NCBI GenBank assembly: GCA_035289485.1
Contig: DATDXA010000031.1
Location: 27,807-91,806, forward strand
Direction: 5' to 3'
DNA length: 64,000 nt
From: an archaeon
GTDB taxonomy: Archaea; Iainarchaeota; Iainarchaeia; Iainarchaeales; Iainarchaeaceae
Part shown: piece after piece, positions 3,561 to 35,618 of the stretch
Position numbering within the stretch: the stretch's first letter is position 1
Layout of the letters: every line of letters begins with the position of its first letter
Made by a program: the position numbers and the translations under genes
Notes under the pieces: model-generated
What the model was told of the DNA's origin: nothing
Seen by the model: the letters and a program-made list of their open reading frames with translations, nothing else
Databases searched by the model: none

Positions 3561-4814
3561 TTGGCTTGGTGTGATTGGGGGTTTTTGGTTTTGCAGTACA
3601 AAACGGTTTTTGATTACAAATTAAAGGGAAAAACTGTATTCGTGCGCGCCGATTTGAACAGCTCCGTTGTTGAAGGCCGCGTTGTGATTTCCTCGCGCCT
3701 TCGCGAGCATTCAAAAACCATTTACGCGCTAAGTGAAGAAGGCGCAAAAGTCGTTTTGCTTTCACATCAGGGCCGCCCTGGAGAGGACGAATTTATCGAG
3801 CTCAAAAGGCACGCTGACCATATAAGAAAATTCACAGGGAAGCCGCTCAAATTCGTTCGCTGGAGCGAGGATTATGTGGGCGCCATTAAAGCAATGAAAG
3901 AAGGGGATGTGATTTTGCTCGACAACACCCGCTTCCAAAAAGAGGAGCAGGAAGACAAAACCCCGCAAGAGCACGGCAAGGACCCGTTCATCAAAAATTT
4001 GGGGCCTTTGGGGCAGCTTTTTGTTCAGGATTCCCTGAGCGTTTGCCACAGGCCGCACGCAAGCGTTGTGGGTTTCAAAAAGTACATGCCATGCGTTGCA
4101 GGCCCTGTGCTTTCGCATGAATTAGAGGCGCTCTCAAAGCTTGACAAATCCAAAAGAAGCGGAAAGCTCGTGGTTCTCGGAGGATCCAAGCTCTCTGATT
4201 CTGTTGCAATTCTAAAAGGCATGCTTGATAGCGGCATGTGCAATGAGGCATGCATAGGCGGGCTATTTGGCGAGCTGTTTTTGAAAGCGAAAGGAACTGA
4301 TTTTGGGGCAAAAGAAAAGTTCTTCTCGGAAAAAGGCTTTGAAAAGATGCTTCCTGCCGCCAAGGCGCTTTTGCAAAAGCACGGCAAGAAAATAATCCTT
4401 CCAACCGACCTTGCAATCGAGGTTCCTAATGGCGCGGGAAAGAACGGCGCAAGCTCAAAGCGCAAGGAGATAAAAATCTCAGATTTACCAAGCGAATACA
4501 GCCCGCTTGATATCGGCAGCGAAACCACGGAGATTTTCAAAAAGAAAATCAGGCAATCCGAAGTCGTGGTATTCAACGGCCCGATGGGCGTTTACGAGAA
4601 AACCAAGTTCTCTGTTGGCACAAAAAAAGTACTCGAAGCAATCGCATTCCACCGCTGCTTCTCAATTATTGGGGGAGGTGATACCGAGCGAGCGCTCACT
4701 TCATTCGGGCTTGTGCCGCAGGATTTTTCGCATGTCTCGCTTGCCGGAAAAGCACTTTTGCAATATTTGAGCGCGGAGCCGCTTCCCGGCCTTGAGATTT
4801 TGGAAAAAAAATAA
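3561..4814 (+). CDS. pgk: Phosphoglycerate kinase
   Basis: Archaeal PGK-like N-terminus (VFVRADLNSS...LSHQGRPG) and a C-terminal GGGDT-type hinge region. 417 aa. Confidence 0.9.
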   Translation: MAWCDWGFLVLQYKTVFDYKLKGKTVFVRADLNSSVVEGRVVISSRLREHSKTIYALSEEGAKVVLLSHQGRPGEDEFIELKRHADHIRKFTGKPLKFVRWSEDYVGAIKAMKEGDVILLDNTRFQKEEQEDKTPQEHGKDPFIKNLGPLGQLFVQDSLSVCHRPHASVVGFKKYMPCVAGPVLSHELEALSKLDKSKRSGKLVVLGGSKLSDSVAILKGMLDSGMCNEACIGGLFGELFLKAKGTDFGAKEKFFSEKGFEKMLPAAKALLQKHGKKIILPTDLAIEVPNGAGKNGASSKRKEIKISDLPSEYSPLDIGSETTEIFKKKIRQSEVVVFNGPMGVYEKTKFSVGTKKVLEAIAFHRCFSIIGGGDTERALTSFGLVPQDFSHVSLAGKALLQYLSAEPLPGLEILEKK

Positions 4815-4833: not shown

Positions 4834-5976
4834 CTAAACAAGTTCAATTATCTGCTTTGCAATTTCCGCTTTCGTTCCCCCGAGCCACTTTGATTTTTTT
4901 GCGGAGCAAAAATACATCTCCCTCTTTTCAGCTTCGCGTGCATGCGCCCTGAGATCCGTTGCAGCAAGCGCGTGCAGCCCTTTCTTTTTTAAAAATTCCT
5001 TTGCCTCTTTCTCAATTTGCGCTCTGCTCTTGCCCCAAAGCGCCTTGAATGCGACAATTTTTATGTGCGGGAATTTTTTGCGCACGGTTTCTATGAGTTT
5101 TGCGCGTGGCTTCAAATCCAAAGTTACTGTTTTAATTGAATCCATTTTTCCAGGGGTTTTTTTCAATTCAAAATCCGGAATTGCCGCAGGGCAGAAAAAA
5201 TATTCTGCGCCGCGCGCAAGTTCACTTAGAACCTTTTCTTCCAATTCATCCGCAAAATCCGCCCTTTCAAAATCCAGAAATTCAGACCCTACTTTATTTC
5301 CAATTATTTTCACGTTCCCCTTCTGCCTTTTGAGCTCAAGTGCGAGTTCGGTTCCGAGTTCACCCGTGCTGTGGTTTGTAATAACGCGCACATCATCAAT
5401 TTTTTCCTGTATTGCTCCGGAAGCAACAACAATTTTCTTTCCTGCAAATTTATTTCTGGAAAGCGCCCTCTCCACTTCAAAAACAATTTTGCCAATGGAT
5501 GCAAGCTTTGCCTTTCCATCTTCTTCTAGCGGCGCAATCATTCTCACCCCGCGCGTTTCAAGCTTTTTGAGGTTCTCCAAAACAATAGGGTGCTCATACA
5601 TGGGCTTGTGCATTGCAGGCGCCAGCAGAACCGGCTTTCCCGCCCCGATTGCAACAGTTGCCATTGTTGTCACGGGCGTATCATCGATTCCCATTGCTAT
5701 TTTGCTTATCGTGTTTGCTGTTGCGGGCGCAATAAGAAGCAGGCTCGCTTTTCCCTTTTTTCCAAAAAGCTTCACATGCTCAATGTTTCCGGTAAGCTTT
5801 GAAATTACCGATTTTCCGGAAGCAAATTCCATCGATTCTTCGCTTACAAGCTGCCTGCCCCATCCGCTCATAACAACTTGGACTTCAAACCCTTTCCTTC
5901 GCAGTTCGCGGCATAGTTCAAATGAGCGCACCGCAGCAATGCTACCTGTAACGCCAAGAACTATCAGATGTTTCAT
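4834..5976 (-). CDS. coaBC: Bifunctional phosphopantothenoylcysteine decarboxylase / phosphopantothenate-cysteine ligase (CoaBC, Dfp)
   Basis: Flavoprotein N-domain (LGVTGSIAA...APAMHKPMY) followed by a DFP/CoaB domain (ASGAIQEKIDDVRVITNHSTGELG). 380 aa. Confidence 0.85.
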   Translation of the reverse strand: MKHLIVLGVTGSIAAVRSFELCRELRRKGFEVQVVMSGWGRQLVSEESMEFASGKSVISKLTGNIEHVKLFGKKGKASLLLIAPATANTISKIAMGIDDTPVTTMATVAIGAGKPVLLAPAMHKPMYEHPIVLENLKKLETRGVRMIAPLEEDGKAKLASIGKIVFEVERALSRNKFAGKKIVVASGAIQEKIDDVRVITNHSTGELGTELALELKRQKGNVKIIGNKVGSEFLDFERADFADELEEKVLSELARGAEYFFCPAAIPDFELKKTPGKMDSIKTVTLDLKPRAKLIETVRKKFPHIKIVAFKALWGKSRAQIEKEAKEFLKKKGLHALAATDLRAHAREAEKREMYFCSAKKSKWLGGTKAEIAKQIIELV

Positions 5977-6018
5977 AGGTTATTTGCGCGTGGAAAGCGG
6001 TAAAAAAGGGTGTATGCT

Positions 6019-6953
6019 TTAAGTATCGTCCGTTAGTGAACTGCCATCAGTGAAGAAAAACGTAATGCGGAACGTACCCGGTGTTAGTATAGATTTGTTG
6101 CTATAAAGGTCAAAGGTCTGCGCGCCCGAGTTTGCAGGAATCTGCTGCCCATAATCTGAATTCTGCTGGCTGCCATTCTTGCGCACAACAACTGGCCAAG
6201 CCCCATTATTGACTGTTGACCAATAATCGCCTGTGCCATTCAGCCTCACATCAATATGGTCTATCGTCTTGGGGTTTGTCAATGTCAGATTTGCAGTCCA
6301 ATGCCAGTCTGGACCGTCACCGGGCAAAAAATCATTGGCGCTGTTGCCATAATCTTTTGCGAAATCAGCAGAGGCCGAGTCAAGCAAAACACTGAGCGAA
6401 TTGCTTCCGCCACCGGGCGGCGGAGACGAAGGGCAGTTGCTATTTTTCACTTCCACCGCGCCCTTTTCAGTGTAGGTCTTTACAATCTTGGTAGTTGTGC
6501 AGGGGAAACCGGCGCATGAATATGCCTTGACATCATAAATGTCGCAAACCTCGCTTCCGGATAAAGTGCAAGGGATGTCCTTGTGCGTTGTATTGACTGT
6601 CACGTTTTCTGACCACTGGCAATAAATCTGCCCGTACTTCTGGCCCACTATCTCCACTTTGTATTTTGCAACTGCCGCCCCAATATCAACCCCTATTGTA
6701 AAAGTATCTCCAGAGCCGCTCCCCGAACCGCCTCCGGTTGATGTTGCCGTGAACTTCTTGCACGCGGTAGGAGTGGTTATTTTTATCCCATCAGGCGAGG
6801 GTGGAATATTGCTTTTCACCCCATCAAAGTTGCATCCGGTCGTGCTCTGCCCTGTTCCAATCGCATTGAGCGCAATGACCGTTATGATTGCGAGCACCGC
6901 AAGCCCGCCGCCGAGAAGAAGGTATTCGGTTGCGGTCTGGGCGCGTTACATCA
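6019..6953 (-). pseudogene. Pilin-like protein with class III signal peptide, paralog A. The reading frame has TAA at codon 3 (ATG ATG TAA then RAQTATEY...). The tracked ORF restarts at GTG 6897.
   Basis: The reverse complement of 6945-6953 reads ATGATGTAA in frame with RAQTATEYLLLGGGLAVLAIITVIALNAIGTGQ, which is homologous to the N-termini of paralogs B and C. TATA motif about 27 nt upstream. Confidence 0.6.
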
Positions 6954-6976
6954 TAGTGAATAGAATGCCTTCAAGT

Positions 6977-6990
6977 ATATTTTAAGCTTT
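6977..6990 (-). promoter_or_regulatory. BRE/TATA promoter motif (AAAGCTTAAAATAT on gene strand) for pilin-like paralog A
   Basis: Near-identical 13-14 nt motif upstream of all three paralogs. About 25 nt upstream of ATGATG, so consistent with a leaderless transcript. Confidence 0.5.
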
Positions 6991-7009
6991 GCAAACGATT
7001 ATAGTCTGA

Positions 7010-7939
7010 TTACGGATAATGGCATCCCCATATCGCGGTTCCTGCACCCGAGCATGCCCACCACTGTACCCCCGCAGAGGTATACGAATCAAATACATAC
7101 CCTCCATTCGTGCATGTATTAGGGGAACTGCCGCATGCAGGAATCGGCATGCAAGTGCCGCCATAATAATTGTAACCGAATCCGCAACCGCAGCTATTTG
7201 GCGGAACCCAAAATGATGGCGAGGTGCAAGTAACCTTTGCTACACAAGTGCCCGATAAAAATACGAAATTCGGGTTGTCGCATTCGCAAGTGGTGCCGTA
7301 AGAATCAACATGCGCTCCTGCAGGGCATGTAAACGGCGTAACAGGAACCACTGGTGCGGATGTACCGGGGCAGTCGCTGTTTTTCACTTCCACTGCGCCC
7401 TTTTCCATTGAGATTTCCATTGTTTTGTTCTGGGAATCGAATGCATACGCCGCCACATCATATGCGCCGCATGGGGCATCGCCCGGCACATTGCACACAT
7501 ACGAGACCGTGCTGCCATTGGGTTGCGCCACATTAGCAGGGTAGCTGTACCCCCCTGGGTTTTGGTCAGCGCAGAAACTATAGCCTGCGGACTTTTGCGA
7601 ACTCACAATCACGCCGTATCTTTTCACCTTCGAGCCCACATCGAATTTCACCACAAATGAACTACTATACCCAGAGCCGCTTCCGGAGCCTCCTACTCCT
7701 GTCATAATGGCCTTTTTGCATAATGTCGGGCTCGTTATCCTAATCCCATCCGGCGGCACCACAAGGCTGCTTTTTCCGGCATCAAAGTTGCAGTTGGTCA
7801 GGTCCTCTCCAGTTCCTATGGTATTGAGTGCCAGAATAGTAATAATCACAAGGACAGCCACGGCTCCTCCAATTAGCAGCAGGTATTCGGTCGCTGTCTG
7901 AGCACGTTTTTTGGCAAAAAAACCCTTCAATTCTGGCAT
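7010..7939 (-). CDS. Pilin-like protein with class III signal peptide, paralog B, carrying a Cys-rich C-terminal module
   Basis: KKRAQTATEYLLLIGGAVAVLVI (Q at +1, E at +5, hydrophobic helix). Conserved core CNFD...PPDGIRIT...CKK, a GGSGSGSG linker, and EKGAVEVKNSDCP. More than 15 Cys in the last 120 aa. Confidence 0.7.
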   Translation of the reverse strand: MPELKGFFAKKRAQTATEYLLLIGGAVAVLVIITILALNTIGTGEDLTNCNFDAGKSSLVVPPDGIRITSPTLCKKAIMTGVGGSGSGSGYSSSFVVKFDVGSKVKRYGVIVSSQKSAGYSFCADQNPGGYSYPANVAQPNGSTVSYVCNVPGDAPCGAYDVAAYAFDSQNKTMEISMEKGAVEVKNSDCPGTSAPVVPVTPFTCPAGAHVDSYGTTCECDNPNFVFLSGTCVAKVTCTSPSFWVPPNSCGCGFGYNYYGGTCMPIPACGSSPNTCTNGGYVFDSYTSAGVQWWACSGAGTAIWGCHYP

Positions 7940-7960
7940 GCCAATAATAACCGATTCATG

Positions 7961-7973
7961 ATATTTAAGCTTT
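7961..7973 (-). promoter_or_regulatory. BRE/TATA promoter motif (AAAGCTTAAATAT) for paralog B
   Basis: Same motif as upstream of paralogs A and C. 22-34 nt upstream of the start codon. Confidence 0.5.
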
Positions 7974-7991
7974 CTTGGCGCGGATTTATTG

Positions 7992-8528
7992 CTAGCAAAC
8001 GCCGCTGAATTTCACAACGACAGCGCCCTTTTCCGTTGCGGATTCTGACAATTTGTTCGATAAATCATAGGCACTCACAACCACATCATAAGTGCCGCAT
8101 TGTTCGGAGCCATCCGGATAGCAATAATGAGTCACCGAAGTCGCATTCGGTGGCACTGGCTGATTTGACAAATCACAGAAATATGCGCCCGATATCTGCG
8201 ATTTTATTGTCACGCTGTATTTTGAAACTTTCGGCCCGACATCGAATTTTACCGCAAACCAGTCATCTCCTGAACCGCTCCCTGATCCGCTTCCGGATCC
8301 GCCGCTAAATGAGGTCATAATCGCCTTTTTGCACGCTGTAGGGGACGTTATTTTCACCCCATCCGGCGCGACAGGTATGTTGCTTTTCACAGAATCAAAG
8401 TTGCAGCCGGTCTGGGTTTGCCCAGTTCCAATGGTGTTAAGCGCGAGAACGGTTATTATCGCAAGAACTGCCAATGCTCCGCCGAGCAGAAGAAGATATT
8501 CGGTTGCTGTCTGTGCGCGGCTTTCCAT
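7992..8528 (-). CDS. Pilin-like protein with class III signal peptide, paralog C (short form, core domain only)
   Basis: MESRAQTATEYLLLLGGALAVLAIITVLALN, the same conserved core, a (GS)6 linker, and EKGAVVVKFSGVC at the C-terminus. Confidence 0.7.
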   Translation of the reverse strand: MESRAQTATEYLLLLGGALAVLAIITVLALNTIGTGQTQTGCNFDSVKSNIPVAPDGVKITSPTACKKAIMTSFSGGSGSGSGSGSGDDWFAVKFDVGPKVSKYSVTIKSQISGAYFCDLSNQPVPPNATSVTHYCYPDGSEQCGTYDVVVSAYDLSNKLSESATEKGAVVVKFSGVC

Positions 8529-8574
8529 TCAAAAATCCCCTGATGCCAATAGTGTAACCAAATAGCTTATTCCT

Positions 8575-8588
8575 GTTATTTAAGCTTT
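8575..8588 (-). promoter_or_regulatory. BRE/TATA promoter motif (AAAGCTTAAATAAC) for paralog C
   Basis: Same motif, about 50 nt upstream of the start. Confidence 0.45.
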
Positions 8589-8674
8589 CTTCAGGCCCAT
8601 TTCCCCATCCAAAACTCCTGGGATTTTAGGAATGTTCTTAATCACTTTCAGCCCCCCATTTTTAGGTATTTCCA

Positions 8675-9793
8675 ATGCAGCTAGACAACCTCTCACTTGC
8701 ATACCTTATAGAAGAGCTAAGGCCAACACTTGACGGGGCGTATGTGAACAAGGTTTCGCAAACAGATAATGGCTGGCTAAAAATAAAGCTCCACTCAAAA
8801 AAAGGCTCGAAGGATTTGATAATTGCAAAGAACAATTTCTTCATTTCAAATTATTCAATTCAGGCAAAGCACGGCAAGAACAATTTCGCGGTTTCGCTCA
8901 AAAAAAGCCTCTACAACAAAAAGCTGGTTTCCGCGCAAACACACGATTTCGACCGCGTGGTTGAATTCAAATTTCTAGAGCACACGCTTGTTCTTGAGCT
9001 CCTTGGCGAGGGCAATCAAATCCTCATGGGAAAGGACGGGAAAATAATTTCTTGCGCGCGCAACGAGGACTGGGCTGACCGCAAAACCCGCAGGGGCGAG
9101 ACATATATTTTCCCAAAGCACCAGCGCAATCCCGCGCAGCTTGAGGGCGATGATCTAAAAAAGATTTTCGGCTTTTCGGAAAAGGACGCAATCCGCGCCC
9201 TGCTCTCTTCTGTAAACATTCCGCCCCTGATTGCAGAAGAAACTTTTTTCCTTCTAAAAATCGACAAGGCAAAGCCCGCTGCAAAAGTTTCCGAAGCGGA
9301 AGCCGAAAGGGTGGCAGCCAAAATAAGGGAATTCTACTCGCTCAAAGAGGAATACGTGCCGGTCTCTTACAAGGGTTTCGTTTTTCCTTTTCCACTTCAG
9401 CACCTAAAGGAACAGCCCGCGCCCATAAAATCACTAAACGATTTTCTAAATGAATTGCTAGTGCCCACGATTTCCACTCCAAAAGAGGAGGAGAAAAAGA
9501 CGGTTTCCAAGAGCCGCGTCTCGGGACTTGAATTCATGCAAAAGCAGCAGGTGGAGGCGAAAAAGAAATTCGAGCTTGCGGCAGAGGAAAACAACCGCAA
9601 AGCAGAGCTCATATACGAGCATTACAATGAAATCGAGGAGCTGCGAAAGGCCGTGCTCGCAGGTGTGCAAAAGAACCTTAACGAAAAAAAGATTTCAGAA
9701 GCCCTATTTGCCGCCGCTTCAAAAGGAAATGCGGCGGCTAGGCTGCTAAAAAAACTTGACATCAAGAAAAAGAAAATGGAACTTGAACTTTGA
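8675..9793 (+). CDS. NFACT-N (FbpA/Rqc2/Tae2-like) domain protein, short form with a Lys/Glu-rich coiled-coil tail
   Basis: The N-terminus LSLAYLIEEL...GAYVNKVSQ...WLKIKL...LIIAKNNFFISNY resembles the NFACT-N / fibronectin-binding protein A N-domain. At 372 aa it is shorter than typical archaeal NEMF homologs (about 600-670 aa). Confidence 0.55.
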   Translation: MQLDNLSLAYLIEELRPTLDGAYVNKVSQTDNGWLKIKLHSKKGSKDLIIAKNNFFISNYSIQAKHGKNNFAVSLKKSLYNKKLVSAQTHDFDRVVEFKFLEHTLVLELLGEGNQILMGKDGKIISCARNEDWADRKTRRGETYIFPKHQRNPAQLEGDDLKKIFGFSEKDAIRALLSSVNIPPLIAEETFFLLKIDKAKPAAKVSEAEAERVAAKIREFYSLKEEYVPVSYKGFVFPFPLQHLKEQPAPIKSLNDFLNELLVPTISTPKEEEKKTVSKSRVSGLEFMQKQQVEAKKKFELAAEENNRKAELIYEHYNEIEELRKAVLAGVQKNLNEKKISEALFAAASKGNAAARLLKKLDIKKKKMELEL

Positions 9794-13788: not shown

Positions 13789-16700
13789 ATGGGAAAAAAA
13801 CTCCTGCCTTTGCTGCTGCTCTTTTCGCTTGTTTTTGCAGGCTGCCTTGCCAACCCGACAACCGAAGACCGCCTCTCCTGCCTCGAACTCACATCATATG
13901 CTTTCACATCAATCCCCCAATGCAAAACGCAGGATGAGTGCTTTTCGCGCGCACAGGCTGCTCTTGGTTTTGATGAATCCTCCCTTAACTCCATTACCCG
14001 TGAAGAGCTCCTAGGCGCAAAAAACCATCTCGCGCGCTCATGGCTCTTTCTCAATAACGCAAGGGCGAATCTCAAAAACATCCATGCCTTATGCTACTCC
14101 GAGAGCTATTTGGGAATTCCAATGGAAGTGAATGAGCTCAATTCAAATCTCACAACCGTTGGAAAAGAAATAGATTTCTTCAACAAATCCGCGGCGCGCG
14201 CAATCAACACAGAGCTCACTTCAATGGAACTAGATGACATCAATGTGATTGCGCAAGAGCCGCTCTTTGATGATTACTCAGTTCTAAACCAGAATGTGGT
14301 GGATTTTTCGGCGCACAATTCCTCCGGTAAAACCTACGCCTCACGGTTCATCCGCGAGGCCGAAAAATTCAACACAATCGCGCAAACACTAAGCCTTCAG
14401 GGCACACTGCAGCAAACAAGCCTTTTTGGAATAGTTTCAGAAAACAAATCCGCGGCAAAAGAACTGCTAGCCGAATCATCAAAAAAGAGGGATTTTCCGC
14501 TGCAAATAATCGCGCCGGTTTTTTATGGCATTTCAGATTTCCTGCGTGATTTTTTTGCGCTCGGAGGCTCTCTGCAGTCCCTAAAAGCCCTGCCCTCATT
14601 TGATGTGCTATCCTCAATCAACAGCCTCGTGGGAAGCGACAACTCCGCCGCATCTGAATTCTTCTCAGTATTCAAGTCAGATGCGGAGCACAGGAATTTA
14701 CTGAACCTGAAAAACTCCGGCAAGATGCAGCGGGCAAGTTCAGAACTGCCATTGCTTGAATCCGGGCTTGAAATGATTTCCGCTTCCCTCAAATCAATTT
14801 ACACGCAGGATTACCTTGATGCCGGCCTTGCATCCTCGGGTTTTGAGGAATTTCCCGTATCCGAACCGGATCCGCGCAATTTCTATTCTGCTTATTCTGC
14901 AAGGATAAATTTCGTAAAATCGAGGCTGCGCTCCCTTGAGCAGGCGGAGTTTCTTGGCACAATAACCCTTGGCGCAAAAACAACAGAACTTATCGAAATA
15001 CTAGAAGAGAATTCGCGCATTGCAAATGAAATGGATTATTTCACGAGGCTCTCATCCGGCGCCCTGTCCGCATGCGCAGAAAGCCTCTTGCTCGCAGAAT
15101 CAAAAATTTCCTCAAAAGAATTTGAATCGGGAGATGCCGCCGTACTCTCACTCAAGGCAAAGCTGGCTTCCGAGATTTCGGATTTCAAAGCGCAAAACCG
15201 ACTCTCAGGGTGCATTGCAGCGCTTGCGGATTTTCGCAGGCTCGAAGAATACATTAAAAGCGAAAACCCAAGTGCAAAAGCAGCCGAACTGATTGCAGCG
15301 TGCATAATTGATGCGCAGCAGCTCGGCCCTTTTGCGCAATCAGCGGAACTTTCCGCGCAGCTAAATGCCCTAAACAAAATAGTGCCGCCATATGCTAACC
15401 CCGAACTTGTCCTATCTTCCTGCACAAGCTTAAAACAGAGGCTTCTAACCTCCGCGCAATCCTCAGCCGAATCCGCTTCCGCAACACAAAAATTTTCCAC
15501 ACTCTCAAATTACGTCTCAATTCTTGCGCAATTTGCAGCGAAATTTCCCTCTCTTCCATCGGAGCCCGCGGCAAAAAAACTCCAGAATTCTTTCACGGAA
15601 ATTTCCTCAAATTTTACTGATTCCGGCATCAAGAGCGAATCAATTGCGCAAGCGTCCGAACTTGGCGCAAAGCTCGAAAGCCTCAATGCGGATGCAGAGC
15701 AAACACTCAAATCACTTGCCTCAGAGGCGGTGGAAAAATATTCCAAAATAGATTACCCGCAAAACCCGAACCCTCTTCTAATCCCTTCTGGTGTGCTTTC
15801 TGCTTCACAATCCTTTGCGAGAATTTCGTTTGAAAATATCCCCCGCGAAATTCCCCTGTCCGTTATTTCCGCAATAAGCCTGAATTCGCGGGATGCCGCC
15901 GCTGTTTTCTCCACAGGAAATATCGGCTTTGCAGCCCAGGGCGAGAAAACATCCCTGCGTTTTACCGGCCTTCTGCCCGGCATAAATTCAATAGTGCTTG
16001 ATCTCAATGCATTCGCCCAAAGCGCGGGAGCAAAAAATCCCGAAATTCCGCTAAGTGCCGGCGCGGAAAAAATAATCTCTGAAAAAGACTCCATCCTGAA
16101 AAACGCCGCACAATTTTCAGGCGACAAAAAACCCGAGATTGATTTTTTCTCCCAAAAAATAGATTTCCTTGCAAAGCAGGGGCTTTTGGATGATGCGGCA
16201 AAGGCGCTTGCGCTGCTTAAGGAAACTTATTCGGGCGCGGAAGTGCAGGCACAGGAGGCGCTAAAAAAGAAAGCCGATTCATACGCCGAGAAATTCGGGC
16301 AGCTTGCAGCCCTGCGCACCTCCCTTGCAAAGAATTCGAAAGATTTGCTTGATAATTTTTCCTCGCTTGGCGCAGCAATTCCCGCAGAAATTGCCGCATA
16401 TATCCCGATTACAGGGCAGCGCGCAAAAGAACTCTCTGTGCTTGCAGCAAAACAAATTCCGCAGGAAAAGGAATTTGCAGCCCTTATGCAAAAAGGCGAT
16501 TTTGCAGGCGCCATATCGCTTGCCGAAAAAACAGGGCTTGATGAACAAATAACGCTGCTTGATTCTGCTAACAGCGAATCGGAAAATGCCATTGAAAAAA
16601 TCAGGCAGAACGCAATCTCCTCATACGAACTCGCTTCAGAAAAAAGCAAATCTTCTCCTGCGAGTGCCGCTGCCGAGCAGCTTCTCTTAAAATCCAGGGA

Positions 16701-16953
16701 TTCTTTGGGGAAAAAATCCTACCTAAGCTCCCTGCTAAATTCCTCAAATGCGCTTGCTGTTCTCCCTTCGGGCAACCAAAACCTTTTCGGGGGTTTTGAA
16801 ATTCCGCTTCCGGTTTACCCGCTCGCTCTTGTGGTTGTCGCTGCAGGAATTTATGCGTGGAAAAAGAAATCCGTTCAAAAGCCCGCAGAGCCTTCAAGAG
16901 TAAAAAAAGCAAATGAAGAAAATCAGGAAGATGCAGAGCCGCTTCTTTTCTAA
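13789..16953 (+). CDS. Large (1054 aa) exported Ala/Ser/Leu-rich protein with N-terminal signal peptide plus lipobox-like Cys and a C-terminal transmembrane anchor
   Basis: MGKKLLPLLLLFSLVFAGC signal/lipobox, low-complexity predicted-helical body, and C-terminal LALVVVAAGIYAWKKK followed by an acidic tail. Confidence 0.7.
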   Translation: MGKKLLPLLLLFSLVFAGCLANPTTEDRLSCLELTSYAFTSIPQCKTQDECFSRAQAALGFDESSLNSITREELLGAKNHLARSWLFLNNARANLKNIHALCYSESYLGIPMEVNELNSNLTTVGKEIDFFNKSAARAINTELTSMELDDINVIAQEPLFDDYSVLNQNVVDFSAHNSSGKTYASRFIREAEKFNTIAQTLSLQGTLQQTSLFGIVSENKSAAKELLAESSKKRDFPLQIIAPVFYGISDFLRDFFALGGSLQSLKALPSFDVLSSINSLVGSDNSAASEFFSVFKSDAEHRNLLNLKNSGKMQRASSELPLLESGLEMISASLKSIYTQDYLDAGLASSGFEEFPVSEPDPRNFYSAYSARINFVKSRLRSLEQAEFLGTITLGAKTTELIEILEENSRIANEMDYFTRLSSGALSACAESLLLAESKISSKEFESGDAAVLSLKAKLASEISDFKAQNRLSGCIAALADFRRLEEYIKSENPSAKAAELIAACIIDAQQLGPFAQSAELSAQLNALNKIVPPYANPELVLSSCTSLKQRLLTSAQSSAESASATQKFSTLSNYVSILAQFAAKFPSLPSEPAAKKLQNSFTEISSNFTDSGIKSESIAQASELGAKLESLNADAEQTLKSLASEAVEKYSKIDYPQNPNPLLIPSGVLSASQSFARISFENIPREIPLSVISAISLNSRDAAAVFSTGNIGFAAQGEKTSLRFTGLLPGINSIVLDLNAFAQSAGAKNPEIPLSAGAEKIISEKDSILKNAAQFSGDKKPEIDFFSQKIDFLAKQGLLDDAAKALALLKETYSGAEVQAQEALKKKADSYAEKFGQLAALRTSLAKNSKDLLDNFSSLGAAIPAEIAAYIPITGQRAKELSVLAAKQIPQEKEFAALMQKGDFAGAISLAEKTGLDEQITLLDSANSESENAIEKIRQNAISSYELASEKSKSSPASAAAEQLLLKSRDSLGKKSYLSSLLNSSNALAVLPSGNQNLFGGFEIPLPVYPLALVVVAAGIYAWKKKSVQKPAEPSRVKKANEENQEDAEPLLF

Positions 16954-16954
16954 A

Positions 16955-18172
16955 TCATTTCTTCAAATAAAAGTAGGCGAAAACACCAAGCGAAATCAGC
17001 GCAAGTATTGCAGAGCCGATTATTTCAATCCCTATTCCCTTCTGCAATGTCACAGTTGTGGTTTCGCACTCAAGCAGGCGCGATTCATACTCTGCCGCGC
17101 ACCCAAGTTCGTAATTGCCAGCGCTCAGGCCTTTCACGCTGAAAACAACATCCTGCGAAGCATTTGGTTCAAGCGTGCCAATTGATTTGGATTTTTCCCC
17201 GGTAACTTCAAGGCCCGTAAGAGGCGTTATTGCTACGCTAGAAACATTTTCCTTGCTTATATTTTGCACCGTGATTTTGAGCGGAATGCTCCCCCCAGTG
17301 TAGAGCTTGTCATTATCCAGCGCGACTTTTACCGAAATCTTGTGCGGCGGCTCAACCGCCCCAAGATCTGGCCTGTTTGTGAGCATCCTCTCTTCCTCAC
17401 CAAAAACATTTGTAAATGCCATGACCGAGGGGAGCAGCGTGAAGGGCACTGCCTTGTGCGCTACAATAAAATATGAAATGCTCAGTTCCCCAGGCTTTGC
17501 GCAGTTTCCAAGCGCATCCCGCTCAGAGCACTTTGGCACTGTTCCGCTCTTTGAAGTGATTCCGTCAAGCACGCTAACTTCAGGAGCCGCCCTTTCAAGC
17601 TCGGCTTTTCTATAGCTTAGTGAAACCGTTGCATCTTCAGTTCCAAAATTTCTTGCAACTGAAGTGATTTTGAACGGCACTCCCACATATGGCGCGTAAG
17701 TGTCAAGGTCCATTTTGAAGCCTTTCTCCTGCGGGAAATAAGCTCCCGTATAAACCCCGAATTTCGAATCCGCAAAAACCGTTATCGCATTCACGGTGTA
17801 AGAAGTCTGGCCGCAAACCGTGACGCTGTTATTTTCCTTCAAAAGCCCCTGGGGCACCGGGATTCTCACAACCCCGTTCTGGAAATCGGCGTATGTAAGC
17901 TCTGCAATCTTTTGCGTGTTGAATAAAACATTGATTTTCGCGTTGCTCTTTGGCACGGGCGCGAGATTTGCATTGAGTGAAATTATCTGAAACATCTCTG
18001 CGTTGATGTCGCCTGAGTAAATAAAATCAAAATTTGTGCACTTGTGCACATTAACCCCGCTTATGTAGAAATCCTGGTAGCCTTGGTCGTGGAAAGTGAA
18101 TTCCTGCACAACCGCTGCTGAGGTTATGTAGCTGAAAAATACTAGTGCAAATAAAATAAGGAATTTTTTCAT
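16955..18172 (-). CDS. Exported hypothetical protein with signal peptide and C-terminal TM anchor (Thr/Val/Ser/Gly-rich)
   Basis: MKKFLILFALVFFSYITSAAV signal and C-terminal IIGSAILALISLGVFAYFYLKK. Its stop codon is 1 nt from the stop of the convergent 1054-aa gene. Confidence 0.65.
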   Translation of the reverse strand: MKKFLILFALVFFSYITSAAVVQEFTFHDQGYQDFYISGVNVHKCTNFDFIYSGDINAEMFQIISLNANLAPVPKSNAKINVLFNTQKIAELTYADFQNGVVRIPVPQGLLKENNSVTVCGQTSYTVNAITVFADSKFGVYTGAYFPQEKGFKMDLDTYAPYVGVPFKITSVARNFGTEDATVSLSYRKAELERAAPEVSVLDGITSKSGTVPKCSERDALGNCAKPGELSISYFIVAHKAVPFTLLPSVMAFTNVFGEEERMLTNRPDLGAVEPPHKISVKVALDNDKLYTGGSIPLKITVQNISKENVSSVAITPLTGLEVTGEKSKSIGTLEPNASQDVVFSVKGLSAGNYELGCAAEYESRLLECETTTVTLQKGIGIEIIGSAILALISLGVFAYFYLKK

Positions 18173-21353: not shown

Positions 21354-24300
21354 TTACTTCAACCTTACCGAATCCAAATTCCTTATCGCCTGCGAGCTTA
21401 TCCCGAACTTTTGCGAAAAGTGCTTTGCAAGCTCAACACATTTCTCGGCTTCGCCGTGATCTGTAAGTATTCTCTTCGGCTTGGGCTTTAGGTTTCTCAC
21501 ATACGCAGAGAGCTGCATGCGATCAGAGTGCCCTGAAAACCCATCAAGCCTTTCAATCCTAAGATTCACATTCAGTTTTCTTGTCCTTCCGGCATTATCC
21601 GTAATCGGCAGGCTCTTTACTCCGCTTAGAACCTTTCTTCCAAGCGAGCCTTCACCCTGGTAACCTACAAAAGCAAGTGTATTGACCGGGTTCTCCGCGA
21701 GGCGGTAGAAGTACTGAACGCTTGCTCCGCCAGTTAGCATTCCGCTAGAAGCCAGAATTATTGCTTTCCCGTTCTGTGCAATTGCGTCCCTGTCCTCCGG
21801 CTTTGCAACCTGGAAAATATCTGAAGTGAAGGGCGAATCGTTTTGCAAAACCCTCTTCTGAACTCCCGTGCGCAAATACTCAGGATATGCCGTGTGTATT
21901 GCCGAGCTCTCCTTGGTCATTCCATCAATATACACTTTGACTTCAGGGTCAATTAGGCCTTTTCTGTAATAATTCTCAATTACAAGCTGAATCTCCTGCG
22001 CCCTTCCGACAGCAAACACGGGCACCAAAATAGAGCCGCCCTGATTCACAGTTTCTTGTATGATTTTCAAAAACCTCGCTTCCGTGTCCTCACGCGCGGT
22101 TTGAATGTCATCCTTTCCGCCGTATGTGCTCTCAACAATAAGGGTTTCAAGCCTTGGATAATTTATGTCAACATTATTGAAGAGCCTGCTAAAGCCGTAC
22201 TTGATGTCTGCGCTGTAAACCAAGTTGTGCGCCCCCTCTCCAATATGAAGGTGCACTGATGCGCTTCCGAGCACATGTGCCGCATTATGGAATGTAAGCC
22301 TCATATCCGGCGCAATATCAGTAACTTCGCGGTAATCGCGTGTGATGCAGTACTTGAGCATTTCCTTAACATCGCGCTCAGAATAAGGCGCTTCCTTATT
22401 CTCCTTTGCCATGATGTCAAGATAGTCAAAGAGAAGCAGCGCGCCAAGATCACGTGTCGGCTCGGTGTTGTGAAGGCAAATTGGCGCTTCCCCGCCAACA
22501 AAATTCTGGTCATCTTCAACCGAAAAGTCGTAGACAAACCCATTAGTTGGCTCTACCATATTAATCTCTGTAATCGGGAGGAATGCCAGGTCGGTTTCTG
22601 AAAACTCCATTAACTTTTCCCTGGTTTCCTGCGCCACCAAAGAAGTGCCATTGGCACTTTTTACCCAATTCTTATTTAGAAGTTCTGCAAGCCTTTGCTT
22701 GGTGACATGCTTTCTATTTTTCAGCCTGTGGTAAAACCACTCTTGCCCAAAACCCACTTCTTTTAAGGGCAAAATATCGCACCCTTTCTTATCTAATCTT
22801 CTTTTTCCAAAGAACTCGGATAAATTTATTGTGATGCTGTAAACCGTATTTTTTGTTTTTGCTTTCGGCATCGCAATAGTAAATTTGCTGTATGTAAAGC
22901 CGAGTTGCGAGCATAAATATGACAAATCCGAGGCCAAATCCTTGCTGACAGTTGTTGCGGTAGCTGTCTTGTTCAGTTGGTTTATTGTGCCATCACCTTC
23001 AAAATAGGCTTCCAGAAAAGCTAACTTTAGTTCGTCCCCGACGTTGAATACTATTTCTGGTATTCTTTTACTTGTTGCTTTTTTATAGCCTGGGAAAAAT
23101 TCTTTCTTGAATACGTCCAACAAATTTTTAGAATTTATTGCCACCCTAAGCCTTGTTTCCTGGCTTATGCTATCTTTTGCCTCAATGTCGAACACTTTTC
23201 TAACCGCATTTTTAAGTTCCTCTACAATTCCCCTGTCTTTGAGCCCGAAGGTGAGCCTTATCCCCCTTTTCTCAAAATGACCTTCTGCAGTAAAATATCC
23301 TAAAATTTTCATGAGGTCTGTGTTCACGCTGATTTTGCCCGGGAGCTTGATTTTGGATCCTTTGCCATTGTATTGCTCCAAGCCAATCGTTTCAATTTTT
23401 TCATTTCCTGACGGGAGTTTGTGCGGGGCAATAAGATAGTCCCCAATCTTTAATTCGCTGACTTTGGCATCAGAGATTTTTCCATTTTTGAGGACAAATA
23501 CGCTGTGGGATCCCGTTACCTTTACCTTTCTTTTGTTCCTTGTCACAATTTCAAATATTTTGCCTTCAACTTTGTGCCTTATTACTTTTTTGACTTTCTT
23601 AAAATTAATTTTCTTGTCTTTTGAGAAAGCAGGCACGTATAACTCCTGATTTGGCTGTGCCGCCATGTATTCGTTTTCAGGATAAAAATCCACATTCTTC
23701 GAGTTGCCGATGATTTTATCTATCACTGCGCCAATTTTTTCTATTTTTATGCGGCCATTTTCCTTTATCATAACCGGTTCTGCATAGTCCACACTCATGT
23801 ACACCGGGCCGCGGTAACCCAGTTTGAACAGGTAAGGCAAAAATCCTATGTGGTCCATGTGCGTGTGGCTAATCACAACCGCATCAAGCTCATTTATCGG
23901 GAAGCGAATCGCGTCAAGATAGGGAAATGCGTCCTCAGAGTTTTGCGCCGCAACATTGATTCCACAGTCCATTAATATTTTTGTCCTGCGGGTTTCAAGC
24001 ATTATGCAGCTTCTTCCAACCTGCCTAAATCCTCCAAGAGGAGTTAGCCTAATCCAGCTCGGGCCCGGCTTTTCAGAATAAATTTTCTTTGCAGTTTCCT
24101 GCAAAATCTTTTTGCGCTCGGAAGCATATTTCACAAGGTGGTGCCTAATCCCGCGCAATATTTCACTTGGCGAAGTCGGGCTTCTCAAAATTTTAGGGGT
24201 CCATCCGGTTTGCAGTATAATTTCTTTTGTTGTCATTCCGCCCTTGCCAATTACAAGGCCGGGCTTAAGCGCTTCAATTACAACTTCACTAAAAGCTTCC

Positions 24301-24581
24301 ATGAACTGAATGTCCGCGATTTTGGCGTCCTCAGGGACAATTTTCATTATCTTTTCGCGCGCCTCTTTTTCCTCAAGCAGCAGAGATTTGTCCGCGCGGA
24401 TATTCACTTTCTTCTTTAGCTGGTGCGCAATCGCGCGCACATAATCCTCGTTCTCGTGGAAAGCGCGGGGATTTTTTGTATAAATCGCAATCTCAGGCCC
24501 TTCAAGGTCGACTGATGAGACTTCGGCTTCCTTTGGCACGATTGCCGCAACAGTTTCCTTTACTTCCTTTAGATATTCCAT
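21354..24581 (-). CDS. aCPSF1 / FttA (KH-KH, metallo-beta-lactamase, beta-CASP, RMMBL ribonuclease; archaeal transcription termination factor) interrupted by an intein
   Basis: N-terminal KH domains (VIGKGGMTTKEI), HTHMDH zinc motif, and GPVYM then intein then TEPTRDL, which aligns with ...GPVYCTRPTRDL... of intein-free aCPSF1. C-terminal beta-CASP/RMMBL region. 1075 aa = 259 + 446 + 370. Confidence 0.9.
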   Translation of the reverse strand: MEYLKEVKETVAAIVPKEAEVSSVDLEGPEIAIYTKNPRAFHENEDYVRAIAHQLKKKVNIRADKSLLLEEKEAREKIMKIVPEDAKIADIQFMEAFSEVVIEALKPGLVIGKGGMTTKEIILQTGWTPKILRSPTSPSEILRGIRHHLVKYASERKKILQETAKKIYSEKPGPSWIRLTPLGGFRQVGRSCIMLETRRTKILMDCGINVAAQNSEDAFPYLDAIRFPINELDAVVISHTHMDHIGFLPYLFKLGYRGPVYMSVDYAEPVMIKENGRIKIEKIGAVIDKIIGNSKNVDFYPENEYMAAQPNQELYVPAFSKDKKINFKKVKKVIRHKVEGKIFEIVTRNKRKVKVTGSHSVFVLKNGKISDAKVSELKIGDYLIAPHKLPSGNEKIETIGLEQYNGKGSKIKLPGKISVNTDLMKILGYFTAEGHFEKRGIRLTFGLKDRGIVEELKNAVRKVFDIEAKDSISQETRLRVAINSKNLLDVFKKEFFPGYKKATSKRIPEIVFNVGDELKLAFLEAYFEGDGTINQLNKTATATTVSKDLASDLSYLCSQLGFTYSKFTIAMPKAKTKNTVYSITINLSEFFGKRRLDKKGCDILPLKEVGFGQEWFYHRLKNRKHVTKQRLAELLNKNWVKSANGTSLVAQETREKLMEFSETDLAFLPITEINMVEPTNGFVYDFSVEDDQNFVGGEAPICLHNTEPTRDLGALLLFDYLDIMAKENKEAPYSERDVKEMLKYCITRDYREVTDIAPDMRLTFHNAAHVLGSASVHLHIGEGAHNLVYSADIKYGFSRLFNNVDINYPRLETLIVESTYGGKDDIQTAREDTEARFLKIIQETVNQGGSILVPVFAVGRAQEIQLVIENYYRKGLIDPEVKVYIDGMTKESSAIHTAYPEYLRTGVQKRVLQNDSPFTSDIFQVAKPEDRDAIAQNGKAIILASSGMLTGGASVQYFYRLAENPVNTLAFVGYQGEGSLGRKVLSGVKSLPITDNAGRTRKLNVNLRIERLDGFSGHSDRMQLSAYVRNLKPKPKRILTDHGEAEKCVELAKHFSQKFGISSQAIRNLDSVRLK
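22467..23804 (-). mobile_element. Intein (446 aa, Ser1...His-Asn, +1 Thr) with LAGLIDADG homing-endonuclease domain, inserted in aCPSF1
   Basis: Begins SVDYAEPVMI and ends ICLHN followed by T. LAGLIDADG motifs ILGYFTAEGHF and LKLAFLEAYFEGDGTI. AT-richer than the exteins. Confidence 0.8.
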
Positions 24582-33281: not shown

Positions 33282-35618
33282 TTACGCCGCCTTCTCAGCA
33301 ATTTCCTTCTCAATAAGCGACCTTATCTTCTCCGCATCGAACCCGAGCTTAATGAGCCTTGTCTGGCCCTTGATTCCTTTCCCGGAATTTGTCGAGTGTA
33401 TGAGCCCGTACATTTCAAGTTCGGAGATGTATTCGCGGTACCAGCGCGCGCTCACCGTGGTTTCCTTGAATTTTTTTGAAATGCGGCAGTACTCATCGTA
33501 AATTTCCCCAGAGAACAAAACCCCTTCCTCGCTCTCGCCGGTTATTTTTTGCATCGGTTTTTTGTTCAGCGCAAGCGCCGCAATCGCATACAAAACAAGC
33601 TGCTGCTGCTCAGGAAGAGTAGAAACCATATTGAAAATTATCTCCTCTTCTACGGTTTTCTTCGCCTTTTTAACTTCGGCATCCGTAACTTTGCCAAGCG
33701 ATTTCTTATCGGCAATCTCACCTGCTCGCAGCATGAGCATTACCGCAGTGCGCGCATCCCCAGATTCCTGCGCTGCCACTGCTGCCGCGAGATGTATTGC
33801 GGATTCTTCAATGGTATTTGGCCGAAAAGCCGATTGCACGCGTTGCTTTATGATTTCCGTGAGCTCCTGCGCATTATATGGCGGGAACACAAGCTCGTGC
33901 TCGCAGAGGCTGCTTTTGGTGCGCGGGTCAAGCCTGTCTTTAAACATCACATTGTTTGAAATGCCAATTATTGATATGCCGCCATCCTTTATTTCATCGT
34001 TCGCGCGCGTGAGGCCATAAATTAATTCATCCAGGTCCTTTACTTTATCAACTTCATCCAGTACGAGTATCAGTTGCTTTCCCCTGCGCGCGTAATCAAC
34101 CAGCTTTTCGTAAATGAAAGCCGCGGAAAAGCCCAAAAAATTCTCCTCAGGGTACAATTCCTTTACAATCTTTATGAGGATGCGGTATTTGCTGTTGTGA
34201 TTTCTGCAGTTGACGTAATTTCCCTCAATTGGCATGTTCTTTGAGATTGCAAAATCAAGAAGCTGCTGCATCACATGCTTTGTAACCGAAGTTTTCCCGG
34301 TATTATGGGAAATAATTCCATTTGCGATAAAATTATGGTTTTTTGGAACCGTCAAATCATACACAAAATCTTCAAATGCCTCTTCAATCTTTGCAATTTT
34401 TGAGGCGGAAAAGCCCGTTTCATTAATTGGCATTGTTTTGACATACTTTGTAATCATTATCCGCAGCCTTTCTTGTTTTACAGTGCTATAAAACCCTATT
34501 TTATTGTAAAATTTGAATATGTTTTCCTGTCCCTGTATATATAGTCGGTAGGCGTCAAATATTTTTCCGTTTAATTTGGCTGGCTTGCTTCTGACTTTGC
34601 ATCTGATTCCTTCCTGGTATAAAATATATGCGACCTGCTGCAGGAATTTTTTTGAATTCGAGTAGTACTCTATCTGAAATGTTTGCTGGCTTACAGTGCC
34701 ATCGCCGGAAAACAAAGCCTTCAAAAACTCCCTTTGGATTGTGGGTGAGGCTTGTAAAATCGATTCGGGAACTTCAATAATCCGGCTTTTCTCTCCAAAA
34801 GGGACTCCAAGTGAGTTCAGAGTTTGGCACGCGTTTTGTGAAATCATGTTGACGTGTGCACACCTGTCCTTTGGATAAATTATTGACGGGGTTCCGCCAA
34901 AGACTTTTGCCAAATCCTCCTGCACTTTTTTAAGCAAATTAGCATCAATGCTGAAATATCTATATCTTTGCCTGTCCGCATTATAGTAATAACCTCTGCC
35001 ATCCTTTGCTTTTTTCTGTTTTCTATTAAGACTTCCGTCGCTTAAAGTAAAACCCAGCAATCTGGCCAGTGCAAGTGGCATTTCATGGTCATTTAAGGAT
35101 GGCAAATCATATCCAAGTGCAAGTTCATCAGCTATCTTCAATTGATTGGACTTTTTCCACTCCATATCCGAAGTTAAAAGAGGATGGTCCCGTGTAACAG
35201 TCAACTCATAGCCGTTTTCAAGTGTTATTTTAAGCAATTTGTCATTATTCTTGTATTTCAGGAAGACAAAATCAGACCACTCATATTTTTTTATTTTCTT
35301 GTTGAATGTGGCCACTAAATCAGTTAGCATATCAACGTCTCTGATTTTTTTCCACCCATTACTCGTGTAAACAAGGCTGTCGCCTGCAATGCAACCCGTT
35401 TTTCCGTAAATGAAAACATTGTCGGATTTCTTGCCGCGGATTGATTCTGAGAGGATTGAGGAGATTTGTTCTATATACTTGTCGCGGAAAGGGAGTATTT
35501 TAGGAGTATAATGCGTGGTTATGATGTTTCTGTCCAAAAAAATGGTTTCGCGCGCGAACTCGCGCTCAAAAATGTTCACACGTTCAGAACTAACCGTAGA
35601 TACAGAAGTATTTTGCAA
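33282..35618 (-). CDS. Orc1/Cdc6 replication initiator interrupted by an intein in the Walker A P-loop. TTG start as tracked.
   Basis: Extein reads ...NVFIYGKTG then intein then TGKTSVTKHV (P-loop GKTGTGKTS once spliced). LVLDEVD Walker B and a C-terminal winged helix. 778 aa = 75 + 364 + 339. Confidence 0.9.
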   Translation of the reverse strand: MQNTSVSTVSSERVNIFEREFARETIFLDRNIITTHYTPKILPFRDKYIEQISSILSESIRGKKSDNVFIYGKTGCIAGDSLVYTSNGWKKIRDVDMLTDLVATFNKKIKKYEWSDFVFLKYKNNDKLLKITLENGYELTVTRDHPLLTSDMEWKKSNQLKIADELALGYDLPSLNDHEMPLALARLLGFTLSDGSLNRKQKKAKDGRGYYYNADRQRYRYFSIDANLLKKVQEDLAKVFGGTPSIIYPKDRCAHVNMISQNACQTLNSLGVPFGEKSRIIEVPESILQASPTIQREFLKALFSGDGTVSQQTFQIEYYSNSKKFLQQVAYILYQEGIRCKVRSKPAKLNGKIFDAYRLYIQGQENIFKFYNKIGFYSTVKQERLRIMITKYVKTMPINETGFSASKIAKIEEAFEDFVYDLTVPKNHNFIANGIISHNTGKTSVTKHVMQQLLDFAISKNMPIEGNYVNCRNHNSKYRILIKIVKELYPEENFLGFSAAFIYEKLVDYARRGKQLILVLDEVDKVKDLDELIYGLTRANDEIKDGGISIIGISNNVMFKDRLDPRTKSSLCEHELVFPPYNAQELTEIIKQRVQSAFRPNTIEESAIHLAAAVAAQESGDARTAVMLMLRAGEIADKKSLGKVTDAEVKKAKKTVEEEIIFNMVSTLPEQQQLVLYAIAALALNKKPMQKITGESEEGVLFSGEIYDEYCRISKKFKETTVSARWYREYISELEMYGLIHSTNSGKGIKGQTRLIKLGFDAEKIRSLIEKEIAEKAA
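34302..35393 (-). mobile_element. Intein (364 aa, Cys1...His-Asn, +1 Thr) with LAGLIDADG homing-endonuclease domain, inserted in Orc1/Cdc6
   Basis: Starts CIAGDSLVYTSNG and ends NGIISHN followed by T. LAGLIDADG motifs LARLLGFTLSDGSL and FLKALFSGDGTV. AT-rich relative to exteins. Confidence 0.8.

Follow-up and report, generated by a model that had tools for sequence, protein, structure and literature searches.

Paralog A, one of three tandem pilin-like genes on the minus strand of a 64,000-nucleotide stretch of archaeal DNA (the window), has an in-frame TAA as its third codon, and sequence comparison makes it probable that this is a young, fixed nonsense mutation by which one member of a lineage-specific triplication has lost its prepilin form. 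The three genes (A, 6019-6954; B, 7010-7939; C, 7992-8528) have a common N-terminal region of ~175 residues, and among the three copies only A has a stop. The features of the locus are listed below, with a slash marking the processing site in leader sequences.

4834..5976, minus strand: CoaBC gene, the synteny anchor directly downstream of paralog A (Pfam Flavoprotein/DFP on the called gene).
6019..6945, minus strand: remaining frame of paralog A, 308 codons plus stop, with a pilin-like N-terminal helix, a beta-sandwich and an orphan C-terminal region of ~135 aa.
6895..6897, minus strand: GTG, the next possible start of paralog A, used in public gene calls (292-aa product HLC92770.1).
6898..6945, minus strand: 16 codons RAQTATEYLLLGGGLA of paralog A, delimited by alignment to B and C.
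6946..6948, minus strand: in-frame TAA, codon 3 of paralog A (direct reading; same in 10 loci from at least nine other assemblies).
6949..6954, minus strand: ATG ATG (6954-6952 and 6951-6949), the presumed original start of paralog A (leaderless), 24 nt beyond the end of a TATA-like octamer.
6979..6990, minus strand: promoter-like element AAAGCTTAAAAT (BRE/TATA-like) of paralog A, a putative promoter by motif uniqueness and spacing.
7010..7939, minus strand: paralog B, 309 aa, intact, leader MPELKGFFAKKRA/Q, with a Cys-rich C-terminal extension (PF04021, 19.1 bits).
7992..8528, minus strand: paralog C, 178 aa, intact, leader MESRA/Q, with an SD-like GGGGAT (PF04021, 18.3 bits; AF2 pLDDT 81.9).

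Read directly, the minus strand around the start of A is ...cattctattcact ATG ATG TAA CGC GCC CAG ACC GCA ACC GAA TAC..., which translates as M-M-stop-R-A-Q-T-A-T-E-Y; with longer upstream context it reads ...aaagcttaaaatatacttgaaggcattctattcact, followed by the same codons and CTT. Past the TAA, this frame specifies RAQTATEYLLLGGG..., a signal peptide of class III (type IV pilin-like) that paralogs B and C also have, and remains open for 308 codons up to a stop at 6021-6019, with no second stop or frameshift among them. The first-pass annotation of this DNA had described an in-frame TAA at codon 3, directly after an ATG-ATG start. The direct reading and the same TAA in other assemblies bear this out, although the interval given for it (6945-6953) is off by one base against the ruler. 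The annotation had also recognized the downstream frame as a homolog of paralog C, in agreement with the alignment, where A is 58% identical to C and 39% identical to B and R-A-Q-T-A-T-E-Y is invariant in all three. It was equally correct that a start at the next in-frame ATG, GTG or TTG, which is GTG 6897-6895, would remove the charged leader and the processing site. The 292-aa ORF that begins there leaves out the 16-codon segment containing the processing site (R-A/Q), Glu+5 and the first half of the hydrophobic helix, to which no start codon is now attached.

The stop is present well beyond a single assembly. Comparison with other assemblies, suggested by the first-pass annotation, yielded the same TAA in 10 of 10 loci (L001-L010) from at least nine independent assemblies or samples, and ATGATGTAACGC was identical in all those fetched. 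The loci were obtained by exact-protein look-up of paralog B and of the 292-aa A ORF; the look-up via A's own ORF leans toward the TAA state, whereas the look-up via B does not. They derive from ENA MEGAHIT (k141) assemblies of several samples, an ANAN16 scaffold, a JGI metagenome and a Logan assembly. Their flanks differ by up to 0.6%, chiefly near the cPGI/PGK intergenic region, and the pilin cluster contains one SNP, located in B, with zero variation within A. The 90%-identity cluster of A consists of two 292-aa sequences only, found on 13 contigs and differing in whether M or V is written for the start, and a homolog search of a 15-billion-protein collection returned no intact or longer variant of A. 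Because ten loci from other assemblies, built from different samples and read sets by different assemblers, have the same TAA, the possibility that A is an intact gene with a sequencing or assembly artefact, also raised in the first-pass annotation, is refuted at the assembly level, and we regard it as extremely improbable. At that level the lesion is real and fixed; by their record names, the samples probably represent one aquifer population, and the fixed status of the TAA may reflect that population only.

Class III signal peptides combine a short hydrophilic or charged leader ending in Gly or Ala with ~21 hydrophobic residues that include Glu+5 (PMC4471445). Paralog A retains R-A/Q and, after the cleavage site, the tract QTATEYLLLGGGLAVLAIITVIAL, a ~21-residue hydrophobic stretch interrupted by Glu+5; its sole upstream starts (ATG ATG) are cut off by the TAA, so the start-linked leader is absent. 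Such a leader is present in B (..KKRA/Q), in C (MESRA/Q) and in 20 of 20 relatives from an exhaustive search. The Pfam class III signal peptide profile PF04021 scores B at 19.1 and C at 18.3 bits, both under the gathering cut-off of 23.7, and does not match A. Eleven of the 17 family members match it at E <= 0.01 (best, 2.1e-06), and Q+1 and E+5 are invariant in the 17-member family alignment. The AF2 model of C (pLDDT 81.9) has a helix at residues 8-35 followed by eight strands, and that of A is confident for a helix at 5-30 and a sandwich up to about residue 170, with low confidence for residues 175-308; both models display the 'lollipop' architecture of a long N-terminal alpha-helix and a beta-rich head. 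Fold searches returned generic Ig/FN3-like heads only, with the AapB filament chain 8q30 as a weak match at rank 29, and therefore provide no independent proof of pilin identity; the 'pilin-like' label accordingly refers to the signal peptide and the predicted overall architecture, not to a specific head-domain match. A Pfam scan of ten of the largest ORFs, among ~64 long ORFs in the window, detected no prepilin peptidase, assembly ATPase or platform protein.

Paralogs A (6019-6440) and B (7010-7380) carry differing extra C-terminal regions of ~120-135 aa, that of A being a beta-rich orphan and that of B Cys-rich. These regions are absent from C and from all relatives, searches for their homologs found none, and by virtue of them A and B look like 'modular pilins'. 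A 38-nt patch at 6431-6468 in A and 7368-7405 in B, encoding EKGAVEVKNS.CP, is 92% identical between two genes that are otherwise ~60% identical at the DNA level, as could be explained by gene conversion or by very strong constraint. Paralog C has a 12-nt tandem repeat at 8269-8302 that encodes its GSGSGS linker. A 174-aa variant of the 178-aa protein (P0002, SRR3989344), from the same population, has two fewer GS units, an in-frame linker length polymorphism; no contig for P0002 is on record.

The family to which these genes belong is small: an exhaustive HMMER search of 1.84 billion representatives recovered just 23 proteins at E <= 0.001. Most relatives are 158-206 aa long; they consist of a single module and have short leaders such as MKRAQ, MRGQ, MKGQ and MRNGQ. 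A first GTDB scan with the pilin profile gave no match, and the relatives' loci came from a second scan with CoaBC. Four related Iainarchaeota-like genomes (L011, L012, L013 and L015) have one intact pilin-like gene directly upstream of CoaBC, with open N-termini such as MEEGIRQRAQTATEY, METKCGGRAGQGAVEY and MHFSEAQTSTEY. As relatives hold a single pilin-like gene at the same place, the three-copy array is a lineage-specific expansion. The codon homologous to the TAA is AAA in B, AGC in C and CAG in L011, and the leaders of L012, L013 and L015 are open; thus the comparison of orthologs for a sense codon, which the first-pass annotation had proposed, gave sense in relatives and positional orthologs alike, and no relative has a stop at this position. 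The ortholog in L012 (4330-4440), likewise single-copy, has, at the start as called, a leader of 36 aa (MEVKTARNNMQSRLGHVLDAPFRLKSPRSGGAARRG/Q), which is unusually long.

Among GTDB species representatives, the nearest CoaBC proteins are those of uncultured archaea (72-73% identity), LFW-281_4 (64%) and Candidatus Iainarchaeum andersonii (63%), which points to a host within Iainarchaeota/Diapherotrites of the DPANN archaea. The window also encodes PolD, Cdc6/Orc1, FttA, SecDF and NOG1, which mark it as archaeal, and NCBI labels its proteins 'MAG TPA ... [archaeon]' with locus tags VJH23_036xx.

The segment now cut off from its start evolved as coding sequence. Over the 16 codons from the TAA to the GTG, pS and pN are 0.51 and 0.06 for A versus C and 0.85 and 0.09 for A versus B, a synonymous excess that indicates constrained coding evolution for most of the time since duplication. 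About 3.7% of single-base changes in the remaining A frame create a stop, and the chance that no further stop would have appeared is ~0.18 at 5% and ~0.03 at 10% neutral divergence; the missing further lesions only bound the age of the mutation. The population is nearly clonal over the pilin cluster (one SNP, in B), which gives little handle on relaxed selection after the stop. From these comparisons, we infer that the TAA arose recently compared with the time at which the paralogs diverged. It could have been produced by one substitution from AAA (Lys, as in B), CAA (Gln; L011 has CAG), GAA (Glu), TCA (Ser), TTA (Leu) and TAT or TAC (Tyr), and a leader of the form MM[K/Q]RA/Q would be normal for the pilin-like family.

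The position of the stop relative to the presumed promoter bears on how A would be translated. The 64-kb window contains exactly three copies of the motif AAAGCTTAAA, one lying ahead of each paralog. The distance from the TATA-like octamer to the start codon is 24 nt in A and 22 nt in B, and a spacing of 20-25 nt is found in 12 genes of the window, A and B included. The 20-25 nt spacing matches that of leaderless archaeal transcripts. Most protein-coding transcripts of Haloferax, for example, begin on the start codon (PMC4983044). A shared promoter motif about 25 nt from the ATG, as described in the first-pass annotation, is thus found for A and B but not for C, where the motif lies ~50 nt upstream. 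The region upstream of C (8529-8590) holds, besides AAAGCTTAAA at this distance, the SD-like GGGGAT ahead of the ATG; SD-like leaders likewise occur on other genes of the organism, such as DnaK and the PRC gene. Judged by sequence, a single paralog family has two copies that look leaderless (A and B) and one that looks leadered (C).

We propose that a single-base substitution changed the third codon of A to TAA. The A mRNA would be leaderless, beginning AUGAUGUAA at or beside the ATG, and with its 5' end in this position ribosomes starting at the ATG would terminate after two codons. A precursor with the basic leader, the R-A/Q site, Glu+5 and the full hydrophobic helix would then not be made, and A would be a young pseudogene, or at most the source of a truncated product from GTG 6897 that is unable to assemble as a pilin. 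Loss of A would be tolerated because B and C stay intact. The loss of function is itself probable rather than certain, and the otherwise perfect ORF of A, including its orphan C-terminal region, also fits a gene that is still used somehow. Nonetheless, among the four options offered in the first-pass annotation, a fresh nonsense pseudogene fits best, given the fixed stop, the sense codons in relatives, the lack of any other lesion and the past purifying selection.

Alternatively, the functional product of A could be an N-terminally truncated, 292-aa protein that starts at GTG 6897 and is no longer a pilin, a reading that we consider unlikely. Its ORF is the longest one, is the one that gene finders call and is intact downstream. 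GGCGGCGGG stands 6 nt ahead of the GTG, the G-rich stretch there could be a weak ribosome-binding site, and SD-like leaders are known for some genes of this organism, as noted above. The product would retain ~10 hydrophobic residues (MLAIITVIAL), possibly enough for a weak Sec-type signal or for anchoring the beta-sandwich and C-terminal region. However, GGCGGCGGG consists of codons for conserved Gly, GGC GGC GGG plus GTG amounting merely to the conserved 'GG.A.V' residues, and the same layout goes unused in B (GGAGGAGCC GTG) and C (GGCGGAGCA TTG). Since the Gly codons are conserved and the codon homologous to the GTG is GTG or TTG in B and C as well, the G-rich stretch is not a specific adaptation. 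Missing from the truncated product would be the basic N-region, the cleavage site, Glu+5 and 14 residues at the start of the mature assembly helix, and such an architecture was not seen in any of 20 relatives. Moreover, the 16 upstream codons are still perfectly pilin-like, and any new truncated role would therefore have to be very recent.

It is still less likely that the stop is bypassed or used, either through low-level UAA readthrough or reinitiation that yields a minor pilin, or as a regulatory, leaderless AUG-AUG-UAA 'start-stop' that throttles expression. Minor pilins of type IV filaments are needed in small amounts, and the base 3' of the stop in A is C, which makes stops leakier in other systems; the ORF is otherwise intact and the promoter-like element has been kept. 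Against this, genuine stops here are most often UAA, no unusual structure marks the opening 100 nt of the putative A mRNA (z = -0.55 versus shuffles), the stop is found in no relative and shifted frames do not continue the protein. The readthrough that the first-pass annotation had considered is left without support by the same observations, which also differ from what programmed readthrough or recoding would present. The window contains no suppressor tRNA, which is uninformative given that it contains no tRNA genes at all. The TATA-ATG-near-stop layout has one instance only among 31 TATA-like-plus-ATG sites in the window and is therefore not a recurrent regulatory design. Marginally less probable again is a reversible off-state, in which A is a contingency copy, a silenced pilin variant reactivated by point reversion. 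Surface variation typically draws on variant pilin copies in tandem, and seven of the nine single-base changes of the TAA restore a sense codon; yet ordinary point reversion is not a switch, and no 'on' allele was found on the 13 contigs or in the protein collection. Phase variation, another option of the first-pass annotation, has no basis in the sequence. The region 5900-8750 has no hypermutable repeat or invertible segment near the stop, its repeats being one weak 16-nt inverted pair far off (6616-6631 / 7980-7995) and the tandem repeat of the C Gly-Ser linker, and altering the copy number of the ATG would leave the stop in place, which weakens the phase-variable reading further. We also give little credence to two bolder variants, a leaderless AUG-AUG-UAA throttle in which rare readthrough or reinitiation yields traces of a minor or tip pilin that is modular and whose C-terminal domain is unique, and a silenced copy kept as a reservoir for reactivation by single-base reversion. 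Either, if true, would amount to a new mechanism by which a DPANN archaeon adjusts the dose of a surface adhesin or varies it.

Several other candidates were rejected. An alternative genetic code does not apply: all three stops are in use in 64 non-overlapping long ORFs (TAA 28, TGA 26, TAG 10), TAA is the commonest and is the stop of paralog B itself, and the DnaK, PolD, Cdc6 and FttA genes are uninterrupted. A frameshift or a fusion with B was set aside: B is read one base out of register, and beyond ATG ATG the protein is continued in neither of the shifted frames. A lipobox reading of TTGC in the truncated A product was also discarded on inspection, as the Cys is nearly conserved family-wide (missing in 4 of 17) and the product has no basic N-region.

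The pilin-like genes resemble archaeal type IV pilins such as the Epd pilins of Methanococcus maripaludis and AapB of Sulfolobus in having a leader that ends in G or A, Q+1, Glu+5, ~20 hydrophobic residues, an N-terminal helix, a beta-sandwich head and several pilin paralogs per genome. They differ in that the Pfam scores of B and C are sub-threshold and A has none, the head matches only generic Ig/FN3-like folds, and the family is tiny at 23 representatives in 1.84 billion proteins. Modular (bimodular) type IV pilins, such as PilB of Streptococcus sanguinis (PMC8179133), have their counterpart in A and B, whose 120-135-aa C-terminal regions are grafted on the pilin module; unlike in those proteins, the added regions have no detectable homologs, and that of A has no confident fold. 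Start codons followed at once by a stop are known as minimal ORFs from the boron-responsive AUGUAA of Arabidopsis NIP5;1 and from start-stops found in E. coli by ribosome profiling. In A, a start is likewise followed almost at once by UAA at the presumed mRNA 5' end, but this stop lies not in a 5' UTR but inside a conserved coding frame, which it breaks; it is unconserved in relatives and occurs once in the window. A further parallel to A is with unitary nonsense pseudogenes among tandem paralogs. Like these, A has a premature stop where paralogs and orthologs have a sense codon, intact sisters adjoining, a fixed lesion and no second lesion; it departs from them in that a stop at codon 3 leaves the whole ORF looking intact, gene finders rescue it from an internal GTG, and any loss of its expression is putative.

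Under the nonsense-pseudogene reading, the public call of a 292-aa protein (HLC92770.1) masks a pilin-like gene with a signal peptide severed by a codon-3 stop, and it would be better flagged as disrupted than as an intact hypothetical protein. The locus would record the lineage-specific triplication of a small Iainarchaeota-type pilin family in which two copies gained C-terminal modules and one, A, was just silenced, a small snapshot of surface-protein gene turnover in a DPANN archaeon. The knock-out of a redundant copy is most likely an ordinary evolutionary event with some annotation value, and it would gain greater weight only if the stop were bypassed or regulatory.

Other parts of the window drew attention in their own right. 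The segment 3030-3575, comprising cPGI and the cPGI/PGK intergenic region, accounts for nearly all strain differences of the ten loci, including a 2-nt indel at 3572 and a dense SNP block at 3159-3315 in L006, next to a pilin cluster that is invariant apart from the SNP in B; recombination along this tract could account for the pattern, as could locally high diversity. Two large ORFs, at 13789-16953 (1054 aa) and 16955-18172 (405 aa), encode proteins with N-terminal hydrophobic segments and no Pfam match, and the TATA spacing of the 1054-aa gene, 22 nt, is of the leaderless type. Inteins with a LAGLIDADG homing-endonuclease domain are present in the FttA (aCPSF1-like) termination factor and in Cdc6/Orc1 (positions 21354-24581 and 33282-35618).
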